Virus record (IMG/VR): IMGVR_UViG_3300020034_000008
Location: 10,331 to 74,330 of that record
DNA from: a virus
Reading direction: 5' to 3' (one strand)
DNA length: 64,000 nt
The notes under the pieces were generated by a model. It saw only the letters and a program-made list of their open reading frames with translations. It ran no database searches and was not told where the DNA came from. Positions within the stretch are counted from its first letter, which is position 1. Each line of letters begins with the position of its first letter. The translations under genes were made by a program, and so were the position numbers. Shown piece by piece: positions 3,266 to 25,354 of the stretch.

Positions 3266-3306
3266 AACGAACACAACCTAGGCACCACACCCTTACAAGT
3301 TTCGTC

Positions 3307-3492
3307 TTACCGTCTTTCATGCGTGTCTGACCGCACGCTGGCACGGTCGCTCCAATTGCCAACGCACAGACCGATAAAACCAGCAACAATCAACGCATAA
3401 CCGTAGCGTTGAACTTTTTCAGGCACTGGCATAAAGAACAGCAAAGTACCTATCAGAGCAATGATTGCAGGAAACGCTAATGAAATGGTCAT
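3307..3492 (-). CDS. small two-TM membrane protein (only convincing minus-strand gene)
   Basis: Two hydrophobic helices; fills a gap with no + strand ORF. Confidence 0.65.
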   Translation of the reverse strand: MTISLAFPAIIALIGTLLFFMPVPEKVQRYGYALIVAGFIGLCVGNWSDRASVRSDTHERR

Positions 3493-3600
3493 ACTTGGAA
3501 CATAGAAACGAATGTTAGTCTCAGTGCAGCATAATCGTACACTTTAGTTCAACTATGTAATTTAGCTTATTATTTGGATAGTCGTTGTACATGAAATCTT

Positions 3601-3831
3601 GTGTTATATACTCAGGTTGTGGATGAAATTAGCCACGAAGACAAAACAGTTGCACGATGTATAAAATGCGGTCGTAAAGCATGGTTAGGAGGTCCATATA
3701 CACCTGACGAGAAAATGGTGCGAGAGACTTGGCCTTGGTGCGCTAGTGGCCCAGGTTGGATGTGGTGTCATTATTTCGACCAATACGAGTTGACCTTTGA
3801 AGACGATTTAACTGTCGTAGACAAAAAATGA
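3601..3831 (+). CDS. hypothetical Cys-containing protein
   Basis: CxxC plus further Cys/His; start uncertain. Confidence 0.5.
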   Translation: MLYTQVVDEISHEDKTVARCIKCGRKAWLGGPYTPDEKMVRETWPWCASGPGWMWCHYFDQYELTFEDDLTVVDKK

Positions 3832-3832
3832 G

Positions 3833-3872
3833 GTGCTTCTAGGTGGTGAGCTTAGAGGCACTTTTTCTTTTT
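3833..3872 (+). terminator. intrinsic terminator
   Basis: GTGCTTCTAGG-7nt-CTTAGAGGCAC hairpin followed by TTTTTCTTTTT. Confidence 0.8.
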
Positions 3873-3875
3873 GTC

Positions 3876-3905
3876 TTGATTTTGTAATACAAAATAGTCT
3901 ACGTT
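3876..3905 (+). promoter_or_regulatory. sigma70-like promoter with palindromic operator in the spacer
   Basis: TTGATT-18nt-TACGTT; palindrome ATTTTGTA-A-TACAAAAT at 3879-3895; AGGAGG RBS downstream. Confidence 0.6.
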
Positions 3906-3927
3906 CCCTTGCAGGAGGAGATCACTG

Positions 3928-4119
3928 ATGCCAAAATGCCGATGTAAGCCCGACTGTAAACTGGAGATAGAGATTGGTACGCCAATTGTGTATGTGAGTT
4001 TTTTCCAAATGCCGAAACCAACTGCTACAGTAGCTCTGGAACATTTACGTCAAACTGAAATTCCTGCTGTAGTTTCGTTGGTTGACGAAAATCCGAAACG
4101 GAATGGGCAGGTCGGTTAA
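3928..4119 (+). CDS. hypothetical protein
   Basis: Strong AGGAGGAG RBS; N-terminal Cys cluster. Confidence 0.7.
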   Translation: MPKCRCKPDCKLEIEIGTPIVYVSFFQMPKPTATVALEHLRQTEIPAVVSLVDENPKRNGQVG

Positions 4120-4300
4120 GGGTAAAGCCCAACGAGGGCGCTCTATCTCTGTAAGAATACCAGATGAAGACTACGTAGCACTAGAGTTAATCAAAAGTAA
4201 AGACTCAACAGGAAATCTTTCTATCAGTGACCTTGTTTTACACGGTATAAGGCTAGTAACAGGCAAAACTACAGCTGAGCGTAAAACATGGAGTCTTTAA
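4082..4300 (+). CDS. ribbon-helix-helix (CopG/Arc-like) DNA-binding protein
   Basis: SISVRIPDEDYVALE...SISDLVLHGI pattern; ATG 4103 is an alternative start. Confidence 0.65.
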   Translation: MTKIRNGMGRSVKGKAQRGRSISVRIPDEDYVALELIKSKDSTGNLSISDLVLHGIRLVTGKTTAERKTWSL

Positions 4301-9927: not shown

Positions 9928-10362
9928 GTGGCACGTACCAACATCACCAAACGTCAGATTCGATTCCCGATTAGCTCTGCCAACCGCGATCTGCTTTTCA
10001 ATAAGCTTGCCGAGCATGACGCTGCTCTGGATTCGATGTCCGGTGACGGAACAGCAGCCTCACTTGAGGAAACTGTTGTTGCTGCCGGTCCTCTGAATCC
10101 TAACATTCTGATTACCAATCTGAGTGTTACAGGTACAGTTGCATACACACTGGCTGCTGGCACGAAGATCGGCCAACGCAAACTTATTAGGCAAGTTGTT
10201 GCTGCAACTTCACCTTCTGGTACTATTGCTGGAACATTCAAGAGTGGCGCTACTACAGGTACATCACTCGGTATCTGGGATGCATTGACTGATACTGCTG
10301 AGATTTTCTGGAATGGTACTCAGTGGACTGTCGGAGCTTCTGTTGGTGTTGCTGTCACCTAA
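9928..10362 (+). CDS. putative virion decoration protein
   Basis: GAGGAGG RBS; Ala/Gly/Thr-rich beta domain ending FWNGTQW. Confidence 0.6.
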   Translation: MARTNITKRQIRFPISSANRDLLFNKLAEHDAALDSMSGDGTAASLEETVVAAGPLNPNILITNLSVTGTVAYTLAAGTKIGQRKLIRQVVAATSPSGTIAGTFKSGATTGTSLGIWDALTDTAEIFWNGTQWTVGASVGVAVT

Positions 10363-18546: not shown

Positions 18547-20010
18547 GTGGGCATTGCTCAGTCTCTAGTTGCGCAGCTTAGACGCCGCGTAATGGATGAG
18601 CGTGTTAGCCGTGTAGCCTTTCGTTTGCAGTGCATAGACGAAGCAGCTACTGATTGTCTTATTAGTATCACTAATCGACAGTTACAGAGCAACGTTCTTA
18701 ATGGTCGTATAGCTGAAGATTTGGCTATAGACCTTGAAGCTACATCATCTTTCTCTGTTAAGCAGTTAATAGAAGCTATAAATGATACTCCTGGCTACAG
18801 AGCAGTAGCTGAGAGTGATATAGAGCCGAATCATCCTGCCGATGACTTAGAAATTGTCGGCAGTATGTCAATCGTTGATGAAGCTGCAACGTTAAAGCAT
18901 CATCTGTTTAGCGACGATGAGATGCTTGAAATTGTCGACAACGCTTGTCGACGACACAATGTCTCATATACTCCAGAAACTCTGCCTCAGAATGAGTTTA
19001 TATTCGTTCTGATGTTGGGCCACGCTGAGGTTTCTCGTAGGCTGGCTAGTGATGCAGCTAAACGGCGAAACCTTCAGAGCAGTGCAGACCAGCTTCTTGA
19101 GGTGGCGCGTGATTTAGAGGTTGCATATGCGAACGATATACGCAGACAGCAACGCGCGATCCCTGTCCCAAAGCTTGACGAGAATAAGGTAGACCAAGGC
19201 GATGTAGTTATTGGCACATTTTCGCGCCGGTCACCACGCAATGGCTTCATGGCTCCTCTGTCTAATGAAGGTTTGTTGACAGCCAGTAAGTTACTTGAGA
19301 TAGCACCTGACGATGTAGAAGATACAAAAGTTACTTTGCGTTGGGATCGAAACAGCGACATTAGATTTTACTCGTATGAACTTTGGCGTGACACTGTGCC
19401 TGATGTTCAGCGACAAGACACGTATTACAGATCAAATTATCACACATCTGAACTTCTTAGACTACAATTTAAGCATCCGTCTACATCGAAGTTAGTATAT
19501 AGGTCTTATGGCCCGTATAGTTCTAGAGATGCAAGTAGTTATATGTACCAGGCTGGTCAGTTAGCGACTACGTTTGTTGATGTAGGATCTGGTGATCAAG
19601 CTGGACAGGCACCCGACTCTGTTATTATGGCACCACCACTTGAGCCAGATACTGTTTACTATTGGCGATTGTATATAATTGGAATGAATTATGAAGTTGT
19701 GCCTTCTAATGTTGTGTCAGCTAAAACAAAGAGTCTTCGCGCTTTGTTCGCAATAACGACACCTATTACACCTATTTTAGGCTTGGCTGGCTCAACGTTT
19801 ACTGTGAAGGGTGAACGATTTGACTCTACAGTTGGTCTTACACTTGGCGGCAAAACTATTGTGCCAACAGTGTTGAACCCAACTACAATGACGGCTGTTG
19901 TTCCTACGTTTAATAGCCCAGCAGCTAAAGGCACGCGTTATGACGCTGTGCTGTCGTCTGCTAGTGGCTTAAAAGACGTGATTGTGCAAGCTTTTCAGTA
20001 TACAGGCTAA
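18547..20010 (+). CDS. putative head-tail adaptor fused to FN3 and IPT/TIG domains
   Basis: LRRRVMD...LFSDDE adaptor pattern; VTLRW...LEPDTVYYWRL (FN3); GSTFTVKGERF...TAVVP (IPT). Confidence 0.65.
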   Translation: MGIAQSLVAQLRRRVMDERVSRVAFRLQCIDEAATDCLISITNRQLQSNVLNGRIAEDLAIDLEATSSFSVKQLIEAINDTPGYRAVAESDIEPNHPADDLEIVGSMSIVDEAATLKHHLFSDDEMLEIVDNACRRHNVSYTPETLPQNEFIFVLMLGHAEVSRRLASDAAKRRNLQSSADQLLEVARDLEVAYANDIRRQQRAIPVPKLDENKVDQGDVVIGTFSRRSPRNGFMAPLSNEGLLTASKLLEIAPDDVEDTKVTLRWDRNSDIRFYSYELWRDTVPDVQRQDTYYRSNYHTSELLRLQFKHPSTSKLVYRSYGPYSSRDASSYMYQAGQLATTFVDVGSGDQAGQAPDSVIMAPPLEPDTVYYWRLYIIGMNYEVVPSNVVSAKTKSLRALFAITTPITPILGLAGSTFTVKGERFDSTVGLTLGGKTIVPTVLNPTTMTAVVPTFNSPAAKGTRYDAVLSSASGLKDVIVQAFQYTG

Positions 20011-20012
20011 GT

Positions 20013-20510
20013 ATGATTACTGTTAAAACAACAGGTGGTTGGGGTACCTTCGCTGGCACGATTAGCCAAGCTAAGGGAAAAATACGCACAGAAGGCAATA
20101 AAGCTGTAAAGAAATTAGCTGATGATGCTTATGGACATCTTGTAGAAGATATAGTTCTACAGCGGCTAACGTTGGCACCTCTGTCAGCACCATATGCTTC
20201 AACTAAGCCTCCTGGTAGACCAATACTCATGAATTCACAAGAGTATGTTTTACAACTTGGCGTACTTAAAGACCAAGGTGGTTATCGTCTAGGTTTAAAG
20301 AAGGGCTCAAAACTTAAAGGCGACGATAGCAGTCGACATGTAACGAGACGTCGTAATAAGGGTGCTTCACTAGAACAAGTGGCAACGTATCTTGAATTTG
20401 GTACTTCTAGAATGCCACCACGTCCGCATTGGCGTACTACAGAGGCGTGGGTAAAAACACAGGTTGGTGATAGGGGTTTAGACGTTTTGAAAGACGTCTT
20501 TAAGACTTAA
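20013..20510 (+). CDS. neck/tail completion protein (HK97 gp10-like)
   Basis: YLEFGTSRMPPRPHW motif. Confidence 0.75.
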   Translation: MITVKTTGGWGTFAGTISQAKGKIRTEGNKAVKKLADDAYGHLVEDIVLQRLTLAPLSAPYASTKPPGRPILMNSQEYVLQLGVLKDQGGYRLGLKKGSKLKGDDSSRHVTRRRNKGASLEQVATYLEFGTSRMPPRPHWRTTEAWVKTQVGDRGLDVLKDVFKT

Positions 20511-21274
20511 TGCCGTTCAATTCTGTAGACATAGCAGTTGGCTATGCTCTATTAGGCATTGACCCTGTTAAGCCTACGTTACAGACGGCTGATTTAGGTG
20601 GTATTGGTCGTGGTTTTAAGACCGCCGCTTTTGACGGTGTACGTGGCGACATGGCTAAGTCTCAGACTAGGCTTGGTAGTCGTCATATTTCGTTTAACGG
20701 CGTTAAGACAGAGATACCTGTGTTTAGATTTGCTACACGAGGTAGGCGTATTGTTGAAACGTGGCCATCTTTGTCTTTTGAGTTGGTAAACTTTAGTTTT
20801 GCACCACAACGCTACATATGGCGAGCAGATCAGTTTAGAGACCCTGTTTCTACATCGTTTAAGTCTTACACAGAGACTACTTGGTCTGGTAAGAAAATGC
20901 CAGGAGTAACAAAAGAAGGACCAACTTTGTTAAGTGTAAGAGACAATCCAGAGCCTTTTGATTTGATGTTTGAGGTCAGGTCTTGGTCTAAAGAGGCGAT
21001 TGAATCTTACGCATTAAATCGAGTTATACTTGAGACATTTCCAGCCCGTGGTGCTCTTAAATTTGTTCAGGAGAGTGGCGAACCTAAAGTATGTGAGATG
21101 GCTCTACAGTCCGTCATATGCATGGACGATGACGAGCCAACGCTTGAAGATTCCGAGAAGGCTGCTTTCTCGTGGGTTTACACTTATGTTGTTGAGACAT
21201 TCCTTGATAACACTGAAGTTGTAACCTTGAAACGAACTATCACACAACCAGAGTTAACTGTGGGGATTTTATAA
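20510..21274 (+). CDS. putative tail terminator
   Basis: Position before the sheath; WPSLSF...PEPFDLMFEV pattern. Confidence 0.55.
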   Translation: MPFNSVDIAVGYALLGIDPVKPTLQTADLGGIGRGFKTAAFDGVRGDMAKSQTRLGSRHISFNGVKTEIPVFRFATRGRRIVETWPSLSFELVNFSFAPQRYIWRADQFRDPVSTSFKSYTETTWSGKKMPGVTKEGPTLLSVRDNPEPFDLMFEVRSWSKEAIESYALNRVILETFPARGALKFVQESGEPKVCEMALQSVICMDDDEPTLEDSEKAAFSWVYTYVVETFLDNTEVVTLKRTITQPELTVGIL

Positions 21275-21538: not shown

Positions 21539-23305
21539 ATGGCCGAAATGTTAAGCCCCGGTGTGCAGTTTACAGAGCCGCGCACGGCTCCCAACGATGT
21601 GCCCAGTGCATCCACAGCTGTTGGTTTGATGCTTGGCATTGCCGAACGTGGGCCAATCAATGATGCACAACTTATCGGTGACTTTGGTACCTACGTGCGA
21701 ATTTTCGGTAACTACTACCTTGGTAGCCCGCTGCCTGGAAGTGTTAAAGGATTCTTCGATAACGGCGGCAAGTCTCTGTGGGTTACTCGCGTTGGGCACT
21801 ATACAACGATCACTGATGCAACTACGCTCGATGCTGTTAAAGCTATTTATCAATTGCAAGGTGATGGTCCTGCGAATACAGCGCTTATCTCTGCGTCGTC
21901 ACATGGCCAGCACGGCAATGCTCTGTCTGTCACAACTGCACGAGTTAACACTCTGATTGCGAAAACAACGGCACTGTTAGCTGCGTCTGCGCAGTTGTCT
22001 GCACCTCTTGACGACGTTAGACGAGTTTACGTTGGTGCTCAACTTCTTCTTGCAGATGCTGGTACACCTTCACAGCACGCGCGTGTAGTTGTTACACGAG
22101 TTGATTCAGCTCAAAAGCTGGTATATTTTATATCAACTACGCCTACTGGTGCTATTGCGTCTGGTGGCACAGTTACTCTTGAAGAGTCTGACATATCGAT
22201 CTTGCGCGAAGGATCGTTTATTGAGAGAATTTCTCGCCTTGCTATGTCAACGTTGGCTGGAGAGTTATACTTCAAGGATAAAATCAACAATAAAGATCCT
22301 GTACGTCAGATTGAAGTTACAACTGACAGTGCGTTGGCTGCAACTAATGCCGTTGATCCTCGTCCGCTTGTTGTTACAAGTCAGCCACTAACTACTGGCT
22401 CTGACGGTACTACACCTAATGATGTTGACCATGTTGGAAGTTCTGCTTCTGCCACTGGTTTATACTCGTTTGATGTCATTAGCCAAGGTAATCTTTTAGC
22501 AATCCCTGGACGTCCTACACTAGCTGTGCATAACGGAATTATTACATACGCTGAAGCACGTAAGACGCTATTTGCTATTCTGGCTGTTAACAAAGGCCAA
22601 ACACCTATACAGGCTCTTACTTATGTGCAAACTACGGCTAATTTGTTCAGTGAGTACGCTGCTGTATATTATCCTTGGATAAAGATTGCTGATGCAACTA
22701 CTGGTCAGCTTGTTGACCATACTCCTGAAGGTATGATTATGGGTGACTACGCTCGCACAGACGCTACGCGCGGAGTGCAGAAAGCACCTGCAGGAACGCC
22801 GGATGGGCGATTGATTAATGCTCTTGGACCAGAACGTGTGCTTACTCAAACTGACCGTGATTTGCTGTACCCTGCCAACATTAACCCGATTATTGCACCT
22901 ACTGGGCAGGGGACGATTACGTATGGTTCGCGTACGTTGTCGTCGGGTGACTTCCGGCAGATAAACGTGCGCCGTGTGTTCCTCTTTTTCAAGTTGTCGT
23001 TAGATGCAGGTACAGCGTGGGTTGTGTTCGAAGAGAACAACTCACAGACTCGCGGTAAGGTGCGTAAGACTGTGGCCGCGTTCTGCTTGCGCCAGTGGCG
23101 CAAGGGTGTGTTGATGGGTGACAAAGCATCGAACGCTTTTATAGTTCAGTGTGATGAAGACAACAATCCACCTTCTGTAATTAATGCTGGACAACTCGTG
23201 TGTAGTGTTAGCTTGGCTGTTTCACGACCTGCCGAGTTTGTTACCTTTGAATTGCGACAGGATACGCGTAGCGCCGATGCAGAATTAGCGGCTGCTGGTC
23301 TTTAA
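21539..23305 (+). CDS. contractile tail sheath protein
   Basis: LSPGV, AERGP, GFFDNGG, AVYYPWI, YARTD..RGVQKAPAG, INVRR, WVVFE, PAEFV. Confidence 0.95.
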   Translation: MAEMLSPGVQFTEPRTAPNDVPSASTAVGLMLGIAERGPINDAQLIGDFGTYVRIFGNYYLGSPLPGSVKGFFDNGGKSLWVTRVGHYTTITDATTLDAVKAIYQLQGDGPANTALISASSHGQHGNALSVTTARVNTLIAKTTALLAASAQLSAPLDDVRRVYVGAQLLLADAGTPSQHARVVVTRVDSAQKLVYFISTTPTGAIASGGTVTLEESDISILREGSFIERISRLAMSTLAGELYFKDKINNKDPVRQIEVTTDSALAATNAVDPRPLVVTSQPLTTGSDGTTPNDVDHVGSSASATGLYSFDVISQGNLLAIPGRPTLAVHNGIITYAEARKTLFAILAVNKGQTPIQALTYVQTTANLFSEYAAVYYPWIKIADATTGQLVDHTPEGMIMGDYARTDATRGVQKAPAGTPDGRLINALGPERVLTQTDRDLLYPANINPIIAPTGQGTITYGSRTLSSGDFRQINVRRVFLFFKLSLDAGTAWVVFEENNSQTRGKVRKTVAAFCLRQWRKGVLMGDKASNAFIVQCDEDNNPPSVINAGQLVCSVSLAVSRPAEFVTFELRQDTRSADAELAAAGL

Positions 23306-23330
23306 TCTGTAACTTTACTAGGAGATATAA

Positions 23331-23363
23331 ATGTCACGTACCAGCGTTGAGACTAACAACTAA
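23331..23363 (+). pseudogene. orphan 5' remnant of the tail tube gene (MSRTSVE-TNN-stop)
   Basis: AGGAG RBS plus the same first 7 aa as the tube gene at 23996. Confidence 0.8.
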
Positions 23364-24016
23364 ACCATGCCGTTCGGTCTCATTAAACGAAGGTTTGGCA
23401 TAGAACGAGCGTGTGCTTGTGGCTGTGGTCTGCTATTACCAAAAACTGTCTATCACGGTAAGATGCGTGAGAAATATGGTAAATACCCGCGCTTTATAGT
23501 TGGTCACGCAACTAGAGATCCTAAAATAAAGTTGCTTATAAAAGGAAGACCAGACGTTATAAAGCAGTGGTTGATAGACAACGAAGGTAAGTTTAAGTGT
23601 CAGTGTGGAGGATGTGACAGAACTATTAAGTTACAACGAGACTACCACAGTAAAGGTGTGCCTCAATACGCGCATGGACACCACCCGAATAGTTCCAAAA
23701 GCTCTGCACAGTTGGAGTTAGGTATAAATACTATTAGGCGCAAATTTTTAATGGCAGACCGTGTAGACGCTCTTGTCAGGTATGACTATCTGTGCGCAGT
23801 TTGTGGGTGGGGTGGTAAAGATAACGTTAAATATTTTGAATTTGACCACATTGTTCCTATCGCTAAAGGTGGGCTAACATGTGCCGATAATTGTCAACCA
23901 TTGTGTCGTACATGCCACAAAGCAAAAACTAAACAAGATAACAAAGAACGAACCACCCATGTTGTTGGGCAAGGGTTTAGAGGAGCGTAGTATACATGAG
24001 TAGAACTAGCGTTGAG
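23352..24016 (+). mobile_element. HNH cassette inserted in the tube gene, bounded by the direct repeat AGCGTTGAG
   Basis: Repeat at 23343-23351 and 24008-24016; deleting 23352-24016 restores one in-frame tube gene. Confidence 0.7.
23367..23990 (+). CDS. free-standing HNH homing endonuclease
   Basis: Two CxCG(G)C...GH motifs; CAVC...FDHIVPIAKGG....DNCQPLCRTCH..KT HNH domain. Confidence 0.92.
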   Translation: MPFGLIKRRFGIERACACGCGLLLPKTVYHGKMREKYGKYPRFIVGHATRDPKIKLLIKGRPDVIKQWLIDNEGKFKCQCGGCDRTIKLQRDYHSKGVPQYAHGHHPNSSKSSAQLELGINTIRRKFLMADRVDALVRYDYLCAVCGWGGKDNVKYFEFDHIVPIAKGGLTCADNCQPLCRTCHKAKTKQDNKERTTHVVGQGFRGA

Positions 24017-24463
24017 GACCCCCTTAAGGTTTTTAGATTCGTTGTTGAGATCAACGGAATGGCTAAGGCTGGGTTCATGGAATGCTCTGGCCTTGAACGT
24101 ACCTCTGACGTTACAGAGTATCGTGAAGGTGGAGACAACTCTACTCCTCGCAAATCACCTGGCTTGTCCAAGTTCAGCGACATTACGTTGAAGCGTGGGC
24201 AGGTGATGGATGAGGGGCAGAATGATCTTTACAATTGGTCTCAAGAGGTGTTTGATGTCGAGTCTCTTGGTGTTGACGTGCGCGACTTCCGTCGCGATGT
24301 TGACATTGTTGTATTCGAGCGTGGCGGTTTGGAAGCTATTCGTTGGCGCGTACATAACGCTTTTCCGTCGCGATTTAAGACACCAGACATGAACGCTACC
24401 AGTAGTGACGATGCAATTGAAGAGATGGTATTGACATACGAGGGATTTCAGAAAGTCGTTTAG
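23996..24463 (+). CDS. tail tube protein (T4 gp19-like)
   Basis: DPL..FRFVVEI, GFMECSGL, EYREGG, PGLSKFSDITLKRG, NAFPS. Confidence 0.95.
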   Translation: MSRTSVEDPLKVFRFVVEINGMAKAGFMECSGLERTSDVTEYREGGDNSTPRKSPGLSKFSDITLKRGQVMDEGQNDLYNWSQEVFDVESLGVDVRDFRRDVDIVVFERGGLEAIRWRVHNAFPSRFKTPDMNATSSDDAIEEMVLTYEGFQKVV

Positions 24464-24526
24464 TTAAACGAAGTTTGACTGTTATTTTATTTGCACTGAG
24501 ATAGTCATGCACAGGAGAATTGACAT

Positions 24527-25354
24527 ATGGGCGACATGGAAAATACTGAAGAGACACCGGAGGACCAACCAGCGGCTTTAATTTCGCCGTTTTCTACTAA
24601 CGTTAAGTTTCCTTTAGATTTACCTGGAGGATACCTTGATGCTAGTGGAGTATTACATAAAGCTATTACTTTGCGCCCAACTACAGGCGTAGAAGAAGAC
24701 ATCTTGGTAGACGACGGTCGTACCGAAGTCAACAAAATGCGAGACGTTCTGGCTAACTGCCTCGTCAAACTTGGGCCATACGACGTTGCTACTGCTAAAG
24801 TAGGCGACGTTTACAAGGTGCTTGACGGTATGTTTGCTACGGATCGCGCTTTTGCGCAGATAGTGTTGCGTTGTATCTCTGTCCCTGAAGGTGACAAGAT
24901 TCGCTTCACGCAACACTGTTTGCAAAAAATGTGTGGCAAGGACTGGAATAACGTTCTTGATTTAAGCACGTTTCCTGTTAAGCCTATTGTTGAAGCTAAA
25001 GCAGAGTATGACTTTGTTCTTCCACAAAGTGGAGATAAAGTTAAGTTCCGGTTATTGCACGCTAGTGATGATCAGCTGATCAGTGAGTTGCAGACTCGCT
25101 ACCCGACACAGCTTGTGTCTGCTATCATGTGGCTGCACATGGTATCTATAAACGGCAAGAAGGTTCCTGCTCCTCGTGACTTGCAGAAGATGAGCAGCTT
25201 TGACCGCGCGTCTTTACGCAAGGTAATGGAGCAAGCAAACGGCGGGGTGGATTTGAGCTACAGCGCTCAGTGTCCTAAGTGTAGAAACGTTGTGCCAGGT
25301 GCTCTGAGGCTTGACAGTTCTTTTTTTCTCCTCTCGTCGGGCTCACCAGACTAG
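24527..25354 (+). CDS. tail assembly chaperone (T4 gp26-like/Mu gp41-like)
   Basis: LPGGYLD.G, TGVEEDIL, DRAF, C-terminal CPKC...FF; between tube and tape measure. Confidence 0.75.
   Translation: MGDMENTEETPEDQPAALISPFSTNVKFPLDLPGGYLDASGVLHKAITLRPTTGVEEDILVDDGRTEVNKMRDVLANCLVKLGPYDVATAKVGDVYKVLDGMFATDRAFAQIVLRCISVPEGDKIRFTQHCLQKMCGKDWNNVLDLSTFPVKPIVEAKAEYDFVLPQSGDKVKFRLLHASDDQLISELQTRYPTQLVSAIMWLHMVSINGKKVPAPRDLQKMSSFDRASLRKVMEQANGGVDLSYSAQCPKCRNVVPGALRLDSSFFLLSSGSPD

Follow-up and report, generated by a model that had tools for sequence, protein, structure and literature searches.

A probable homing cassette, carrying an HNH nuclease gene and a spare gene start, within the tail-tube gene of a soil virus

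The window analysed here is a stretch of 64,000 nucleotides (positions 10,331 to 74,330) of the 74-kb IMG/VR virus record IMGVR_UViG_3300020034_000008, which comes from a soil metagenome. On its plus strand a gene for an HNH endonuclease lies within the 5' end of the tail-tube gene, and the first seven codons of the tube gene are present twice, once before the nuclease gene and once after it. The upstream neighbour is the tail sheath gene (21539..23305, 588 aa; Pfam PF04984 and PF17482), whose stop is followed 25 nt later by the ATG of a ten-codon open reading frame (ORF) at 23331..23363. This mini-ORF, the orphaned native tube start, reads ATG TCA CGT ACC AGC GTT GAG ACT AAC AAC with a TAA stop at 23361-23363; it encodes MSRTSVETNN, the first seven residues of which are the N-terminus of the tube protein. 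It is now driven by the native Shine-Dalgarno (SD) sequence of the tube gene, AGGAG (23320..23324), which has the same placement in relatives. The sequence-only reading let the feature begin at 23320, a coordinate that is correct for this ribosome-binding site (RBS), the ATG itself being at 23331. The HNH gene (23367..23990, 207 aa) starts with its ATG at 23367, 3 nt past the mini-ORF stop and in the same reading frame as the mini-ORF, and ends with the stop codon TAG at 23988-23990. A new tube SD, GAGGAG (23979..23984), is embedded in its last codons (F-R-G-A) and leads to the functional tube gene (23996..24463, 155 aa; PF06841, E 7.5e-37), the sole tube gene in the 74-kb record. The replacement start of this gene, ATG AGT AGA ACT AGC GTT GAG (23996..24016), again encodes MSRTSVE with codons 2-4 recoded, and the codon after it is GAC (MSRTSVED).

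The two starts share an exact 9-nt direct repeat, AGCGTTGAG, whose left copy is at 23343..23351 and whose right copy, at 24008-24016, forms codons 5-7 of the replacement start. In silico removal of 23352..24016, a 665-nt insert made up of a 15-nt leader, the HNH ORF, the SD site and the replacement start, joins 23331-23351 to 24017-24463 and gives exactly the tube protein; any register of the insert limits inside the 9-nt repeat is equally valid. Since identical 7-residue peptides within 2 kb arise by chance only 0.15 times per shuffled 64-kb window, and since a strong SD precedes both copies, the duplication of MSRTSVE is not a chance event. A putatively mobile unit is inserted seven codons into the only tube gene of this virus, whose protein is unchanged from the substitute start. 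No terminal inverted repeats are present at the insert ends, and a transposon reading was dropped; the GC content of the insert (42.3%) is inside the range of the window (44.7%). Base for base this is the layout described in the sequence-only reading, which had noted an MSRTSVE mini-ORF behind AGGAG with the HNH gene 3 nt past its stop, the same peptide spelled with six synonymous substitutions at the working gene, a tube RBS in the last HNH codons, and one intact gene when 23352-24016 is removed. Its claims that an HNH cassette splits the essential tube gene and that the insert brings a new gene start likewise hold, in view of the PF01844 match of the nuclease, the single PF06841 gene in the record, and the strong SD with an ATG at the insert end.

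That removal of 23352-24016 yields an intact in-frame gene is also what would be expected of a self-splicing intron or an intein, the tube protein then being made from the upstream start. We give this explanation almost no credence. A search of 22800-24600 against Rfam returned zero families at E up to 1, and the HNH ORF takes up 624 of the 665 nt, leaving about 40 nt for a ribozyme. Group I splicing uses an upstream exon ending in U and an intron ending in G, a combination found in none of the ten equivalent junction registers, and the insert lacks the GUGYG start of group II introns. An intein is contradicted by the stop codon before the HNH gene, by the stop at its end and by the HNH frame, which is out of phase with the tube gene. 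In either case the gene would have no need of a complete second SD and start. The earlier claim that the arrangement works without splicing is borne out by the lack of an Rfam match in that interval, by the absence of group I or intein geometry, and by the tube gene having its own SD and start.

The duplex energies with the anti-SD sequence differ sharply among the three starts. They are -7.3 kcal/mol for the mini-ORF (top 2.7% of random positions) and -9.5 kcal/mol for the new tube start (top 0.6%), whereas the HNH start, with -2.7 kcal/mol, is at background (41% of random positions do equally well). Lacking an SD, the HNH gene begins 3 nt past the stop of the mini-ORF, which is served by the native tube SD; it is therefore a reasonable inference that ribosomes restart on the HNH gene after the ten codons of the mini-ORF, by translational coupling. 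Such coupling appears to be routine in the late operon: two other structural-gene starts (20013 and 20510; window 20007-20013 and 20507-20513) abut or overlap the preceding stop and are SD-less (-2.5 and -1.4 kcal/mol). Promoter-like and terminator-like sites around the cassette are at chance level, so that the cassette is probably transcribed together with the late operon. RNA folds around both starts are no better than those of shuffled sequences.

The gene product of the HNH ORF matches PF01844 over residues 143-190 (48 bits, E 1.4e-12; cut-off 21.4), and it also matches PHROG HNH families and HNH entries of the PDB. Its C-terminal half is a beta-beta-alpha-metal core in which the CxxC...DH...N...CxxCH pattern is intact; all catalytic and zinc residues are present, and C143, C146, D160, H161, N175, C180, C183 and H184 are invariant in an alignment with four homologues. 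The homologues start with M-P-x-G, in agreement with the annotated HNH start. Two copies of a Cys-rich motif, CxCGCG...P(R/Q)(F/Y)..GH, are found in the N-terminal half (residues 1-135, window 23367-23770), and the distant homologues P0058 and P0059 have three; these motifs are probably tandem zinc-finger DNA-binding modules, by analogy with those described in other phage homing nucleases (Barth et al. 2023, PMC10448857).

Only two close homologues, P0056 and P0057 (55-57% identity), were found among 5.8 billion proteins, and the record holds a single HNH gene. A sporadic distribution of this kind is typical of homing endonuclease genes. The HNH protein gave zero loci in IMG/VR, and its profile detected only distant relatives in JGI/ENA metagenome contigs (at most 31% identity over full length). 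The C-terminal tail G-x-G-F-R is conserved in P0056 and P0057, and in the window the codons of this tail (23970-23990) spell the tube SD; a family of HNH cassettes that always ends with an RBS for the downstream gene may be represented here. The sizes of contigs with tube-family matches never coincide with those of the P0056 (1300) and P0057 (3314) contigs, a weak hint that these two HNH genes do not adjoin a complete tube gene.

Related loci were collected from IMG/VR (29) and from prokaryote genomes (80), and the sheath gene is upstream of the tube gene in 92 of them, with a median of 70 nt between the tblastn matches. In these relatives an AGGAG and the tube ATG lie 10-25 nt past the sheath stop, which is the place of the orphan start here, and the family as a whole retains M-x-R-T-S-V-E-D-P-L-K-V-F-R-F as the N-terminus of the tube protein. 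An HNH gene between sheath and tube was found in none of the 92. The comparison supports sheath-then-tube as the ancestral arrangement. From the relatives' junction without HNH, the single tube gene and single HNH gene, and the mere two close HNH homologues, we conclude that a single-copy structural gene has received the cassette at its 5' end as a lineage-specific insertion. The earlier reading called for empty alleles; all 92 relatives with this gene order are HNH-free, and none of them is of the same lineage, the closest tube protein being 71% identical. A blastn search with 3 kb as query found zero matches in 50,697 phage records, and a search of IMG/VR for the tube-start pattern ATG-N6-ACN-AGCGTTGAGGAYCC was likewise empty. 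The tube profile matched GTDB genomes at no more than 46% identity and over many phyla, and for this reason no host is named.

Inserts of at least 800 nt between sheath and tube are present in only two of the 92 loci, L022 and L026, and neither has a duplication. In L022 (2540-3480) three small minus-strand genes, whose products by eye resemble HicB-, RelE/ParE- and Phd-type toxin-antitoxin proteins, lie between sheath and tube, and the sheath-tube junction thus takes other cargo. Two additional plus-strand ORFs (76 and 150 aa), to which no function is assigned, occupy the corresponding place in L026 (2637-3316). The sheath genes of several relatives (L003:1533-2209, L007:1436-2085, L008 and L009) contain about 650 nt without a match in the sheath gene of the window, probably a variable surface domain and less probably an inserted element.

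A stationary HNH gene that serves the phage, for instance against competitors or in DNA processing, with the duplicated start as a fossil, is difficult to reconcile with the 92 relatives, all of which do without it at this position. The orphan start, still fully open and preceded by a strong SD, points to a recent event, and the site is not beside the terminase gene, the usual neighbour of helper HNH proteins. Consistent with domestication are the intact catalytic residues, the co-orientation with the late operon and the lack of an own promoter or terminator above chance, and the domestication of homing nucleases has a known case in HO, which derives from WHO-like elements (Coughlan et al. 2020, PMC7282813). 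On balance we hold a domesticated gene to be improbable.

An assembly artefact joining two phage variants would suit a metagenomic source in which both runs with the sequence come from one sample. It can be put aside as extremely improbable: across the region two Logan contigs of about 45 kb have exactly the sequence of the IMG/VR contig, with a depth of about 42x, and the structure is coherent in frame and signals. The contigs from this single soil sample, possibly the source, contain no variant letters, joints or loose ends and no joint across 23352-24016, in a check that rests on assembled contigs of two runs, which a rare empty allele could escape.

The relation between the two seven-codon starts bears on the origin of the second start. 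They are identical at 15 of 21 bases, and all six differences are synonymous (TCA/AGT, CGT/AGA and ACC/ACT). The differences are bounded sharply, with six of the nine bases changed in codons 2-4 and none of nine in codons 5-7 (Fisher p = 0.009). At each changed codon, no more than 3-5 of the about 60 other codons would be synonymous. All three changed codons are nevertheless synonymous: each copy was a functioning tube start while it evolved, or else every change fell in the working copy. The sequence TATA is common to both ATGs at -5 to -2. A tube start that arrived with the cassette from a donor phage would explain the synonymy, and in the fungal (Beaudet et al. 2013, PMC3630166) and yeast (PMC7282813) elements co-transfer of a foreign gene end has been shown. 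A donor origin does not fit the sharp boundary unless the right-hand crossover fell between codons 4 and 5. Recoding in place, on the other hand, explains the boundary but needs a change of the serine codon TCA to AGT via intermediate residues; residue 2 of the tube protein varies among A, P, S and G in the relatives. We lean towards the view that the substitute start most likely came with the cassette from the tube gene of another phage and was not recoded in place.

We consider it probable that the locus is a free-standing HNH homing cassette of the kind that replaces a gene end, consisting of the nuclease gene, an RBS at its 3' end and substitute first codons of the tube gene. In a mixed infection, the nuclease would cut cassette-free tube genes near the junction, and repair would copy the cassette from the carrier, with the sheath gene and the orphan start as left homology arm and the body of the tube gene as right arm. 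The carrier would be shielded in two ways, by the splitting of the recognition site through the insertion and by the different spelling of codons 2-4 in the new start. The substitute start would most likely have arrived with the cassette from the tube gene of another phage, and ribosomes ending the orphan ORF would restart on the nuclease gene, which lacks an RBS of its own. By analogy, the orphan copy holds the left half of the presumed site and the working copy the right half plus 9 bases. Had codons 2-4 kept their native spelling, 21 native bases would lie left of the junction in the working copy, and a protective role of the respelling is plausible for this reason.

Several observations weigh against this proposal. 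The replacement comprises just seven codons, of which three differ, and if the recognition site were mainly right of the junction, the resident gene would be left unprotected. A stem of 6-7 bp (TGAGAC/GTCTCA) brackets the mini-ORF stop and the HNH start; this hairpin is no better than that of shuffled sequence (z = -1.07). With a closest tube protein of 71% identity, the comparisons reach distant relatives only and not the virus's own lineage. Foreign origin alone leaves the identity of codons 5-7 (9 of 9 bases) and the shared TATA unexplained. Codon usage, compared with that of the whole genome, of the nuclease gene and of the remaining tube codons, fails to separate the two starts, and the relatives' codons likewise fail to tell a native from a foreign start; the position of the orphan copy does match the native position in relatives.

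The brevity of the duplication and the mere three differing codons would equally suit a passive scar, in which a single illegitimate insertion event, or an insertion that came after a short tandem duplication, left a viable gene by luck. The respelled codons would then reflect divergence of the donor, selection on the initiation region, or less frequent deletion once the repeats had been shortened, and the mini-ORF would be vestigial. The exact 9-nt repeat looks like a microhomology junction, AGT AGA ACT is richer in A/T than TCA CGT ACC, as suits a start region, and the sheath-tube insertions of L022 and L026 came without a duplication. A full SD, an ATG and in-frame codons at the end of the insert are too specific for a random event, however, and both close HNH homologues have retained the tail G-x-G-F-R, whose codons encode the SD here. 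In the eukaryotic precedents that have been tested, moreover, the replaced end gives resistance (PMC7282813; Osborne et al. 2026, preprint 10.64898/2026.08.13.744650). A passive scar is in our estimate unlikely, although it is the most serious competitor of the homing cassette.

The survey of other HNH genes adds one further point in favour of a scar. The sequence-only reading had proposed a search of other HNH genes for flanking duplicated N-terminal peptides; none of 80 loci with distant HNH genes in JGI/ENA metagenome contigs has a duplicated start of the downstream gene. One gut-metagenome contig, L075, shows a duplication at a 3' end instead. In this contig (2890-4600) the last ~40 codons of a short-chain-dehydrogenase-like gene are present both before and after a 291-aa HNH ORF (3290-4165); each copy reads ...ETPLGRLGTPEDIAAAVSFLAD(G/D)RASFITGQVLTCDGGFIL and then has a stop, an arrangement that looks like a gene-end-replacing layout at the 3' end in a bacterium. 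In a further locus, L076, a 398-aa HNH ORF has a translation of about ten residues, KRKVERPSFF, on either side (180-270 and 1470-1560); neither copy lies in an obvious gene, and this may be an intergenic element that is repeated.

A broader proposal can be made only tentatively, and we give it rather less than an even chance. The homing cassette in the tube gene may represent a widespread third class of homing elements in phages, neither intron nor intein, in which a nuclease gene is combined with an RBS and a respelled, cleavage-resistant gene start, and in which the orphan start is reused as a leader ORF feeding the nuclease. Such a class would be the counterpart, in prokaryotic viruses and at the 5' end of genes, of the yeast WHO elements, and this locus, with seven codons of which three are respelled, would be its minimal form. 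If the respelled start protects, the locus offers a small and testable model of how a homing nuclease can reside inside an essential gene without splicing, and three codons and one RBS would be all that separates a sensitive from a resistant allele. The principle of the WHO elements and of the mobile endonuclease ORFs (mORFs) of fungal mitochondria would then apply in phages and at the 5' ends of genes, and no longer only in eukaryotic nuclei and organelles, and short orphan gene starts beside phage nuclease genes, which annotation pipelines ignore, would find an explanation. Cassettes of this kind create chimeric gene starts, which may mislead phylogenies of structural genes, and the cassettes themselves mark recombination boundaries.

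Among known systems, the WHO elements of yeast are the closest in design. In these elements the 3' end of the aldolase gene FBA1 is replaced by a copy that resists the element's own nuclease, and the old end is left as a fragment (PMC7282813); allele-specific cleavage and diversifying selection on a 28-bp site have been shown, as has, for WHO6 and FBA1, the resistance given by the replaced end (PMC7282813; preprint 10.64898/2026.08.13.744650). The phage locus shares with them the combination of an endonuclease gene and a substitute end of an essential gene, without intron or intein and with an orphan fragment alongside. The WHO proteins are LAGLIDADG enzymes derived from inteins and carrying a zinc finger, whereas the phage enzyme is of the HNH type, and the likeness is therefore one of mechanism and not of descent. 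WHO replaces hundreds of bases at a 3' end, whereas the phage cassette replaces 21 bases at a 5' end and, because it acts there, must also bring an RBS. The genome in which WHO elements reside is that of a eukaryotic nucleus, and their homing takes place in meiosis; the phage element, in contrast, belongs to a late operon. The orphan fragment of the phage, unlike that of WHO, stays translatable and abuts the start of the nuclease gene.

The mORFs of fungal mitochondria are a second precedent. They are inserted in atp6, atp9, cox2 and nad3, where they provide a foreign C-terminus while the native duplicate is kept, and the differences between the copies are mostly synonymous (Beaudet et al. 2013, PMC3630166). 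Their hosts include these four genes in Glomus (PMC3630166) and, as cited there, atp6 in Allomyces (Paquin et al. 1994), and partial gene duplications beside free-standing endonuclease genes have been reported in other mitogenomes. The phage locus resembles them in having an endonuclease ORF inside a protein-coding gene, a second copy of the gene end, a retained native end, and largely synonymous differences between the two. It differs in that the enzymes of mORFs are of the LAGLIDADG or GIY-YIG type, that their duplications, of 50-280 nt, are longer and affect the 3' end, that the setting is organellar, and in that the native copy of mORF-bearing genes has been shown to match sister species.

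Phage homing endonuclease genes are mostly free-standing, and near tail genes they mark the boundaries of recombination (PMC10448857). Like the seg and mob genes of T4-like phages and ICP1 (Edgell et al. 2010, PMC2988022; PMC10448857), the nuclease gene described here is phage-borne, free-standing and sporadic, and of the HNH type that is frequent among them; those genes too have conserved essential genes as neighbours, tail genes among them, and double-strand-break repair is the means by which they spread together with flanking DNA. They are, in contrast, intergenic, and mobE in the nrdA gene of Aeh1 splits its host gene into two working polypeptides. A spare gene start carried by a nuclease within a gene is not described among the free-standing homing genes of T4-like phages and ICP1, and our full-text literature searches found no description in phages of a layout with an in-gene nuclease and a spare start. 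With the homing endonucleases borne by introns and inteins the locus has in common a position inside an essential gene and a recognition site disrupted by the insertion; it differs from them in lacking a ribozyme or protein-splicing domain, function being restored by duplication.

Set against these systems, the architecture proposed in the sequence-only reading was right and its mechanism is plausible, but the strategy is not unprecedented (WHO, PMC7282813; mORFs, PMC3630166). The gene-end-replacing homing design is known from yeast and from fungal mitochondria; here it would act in a phage, at the 5' end of a gene and with an HNH enzyme.

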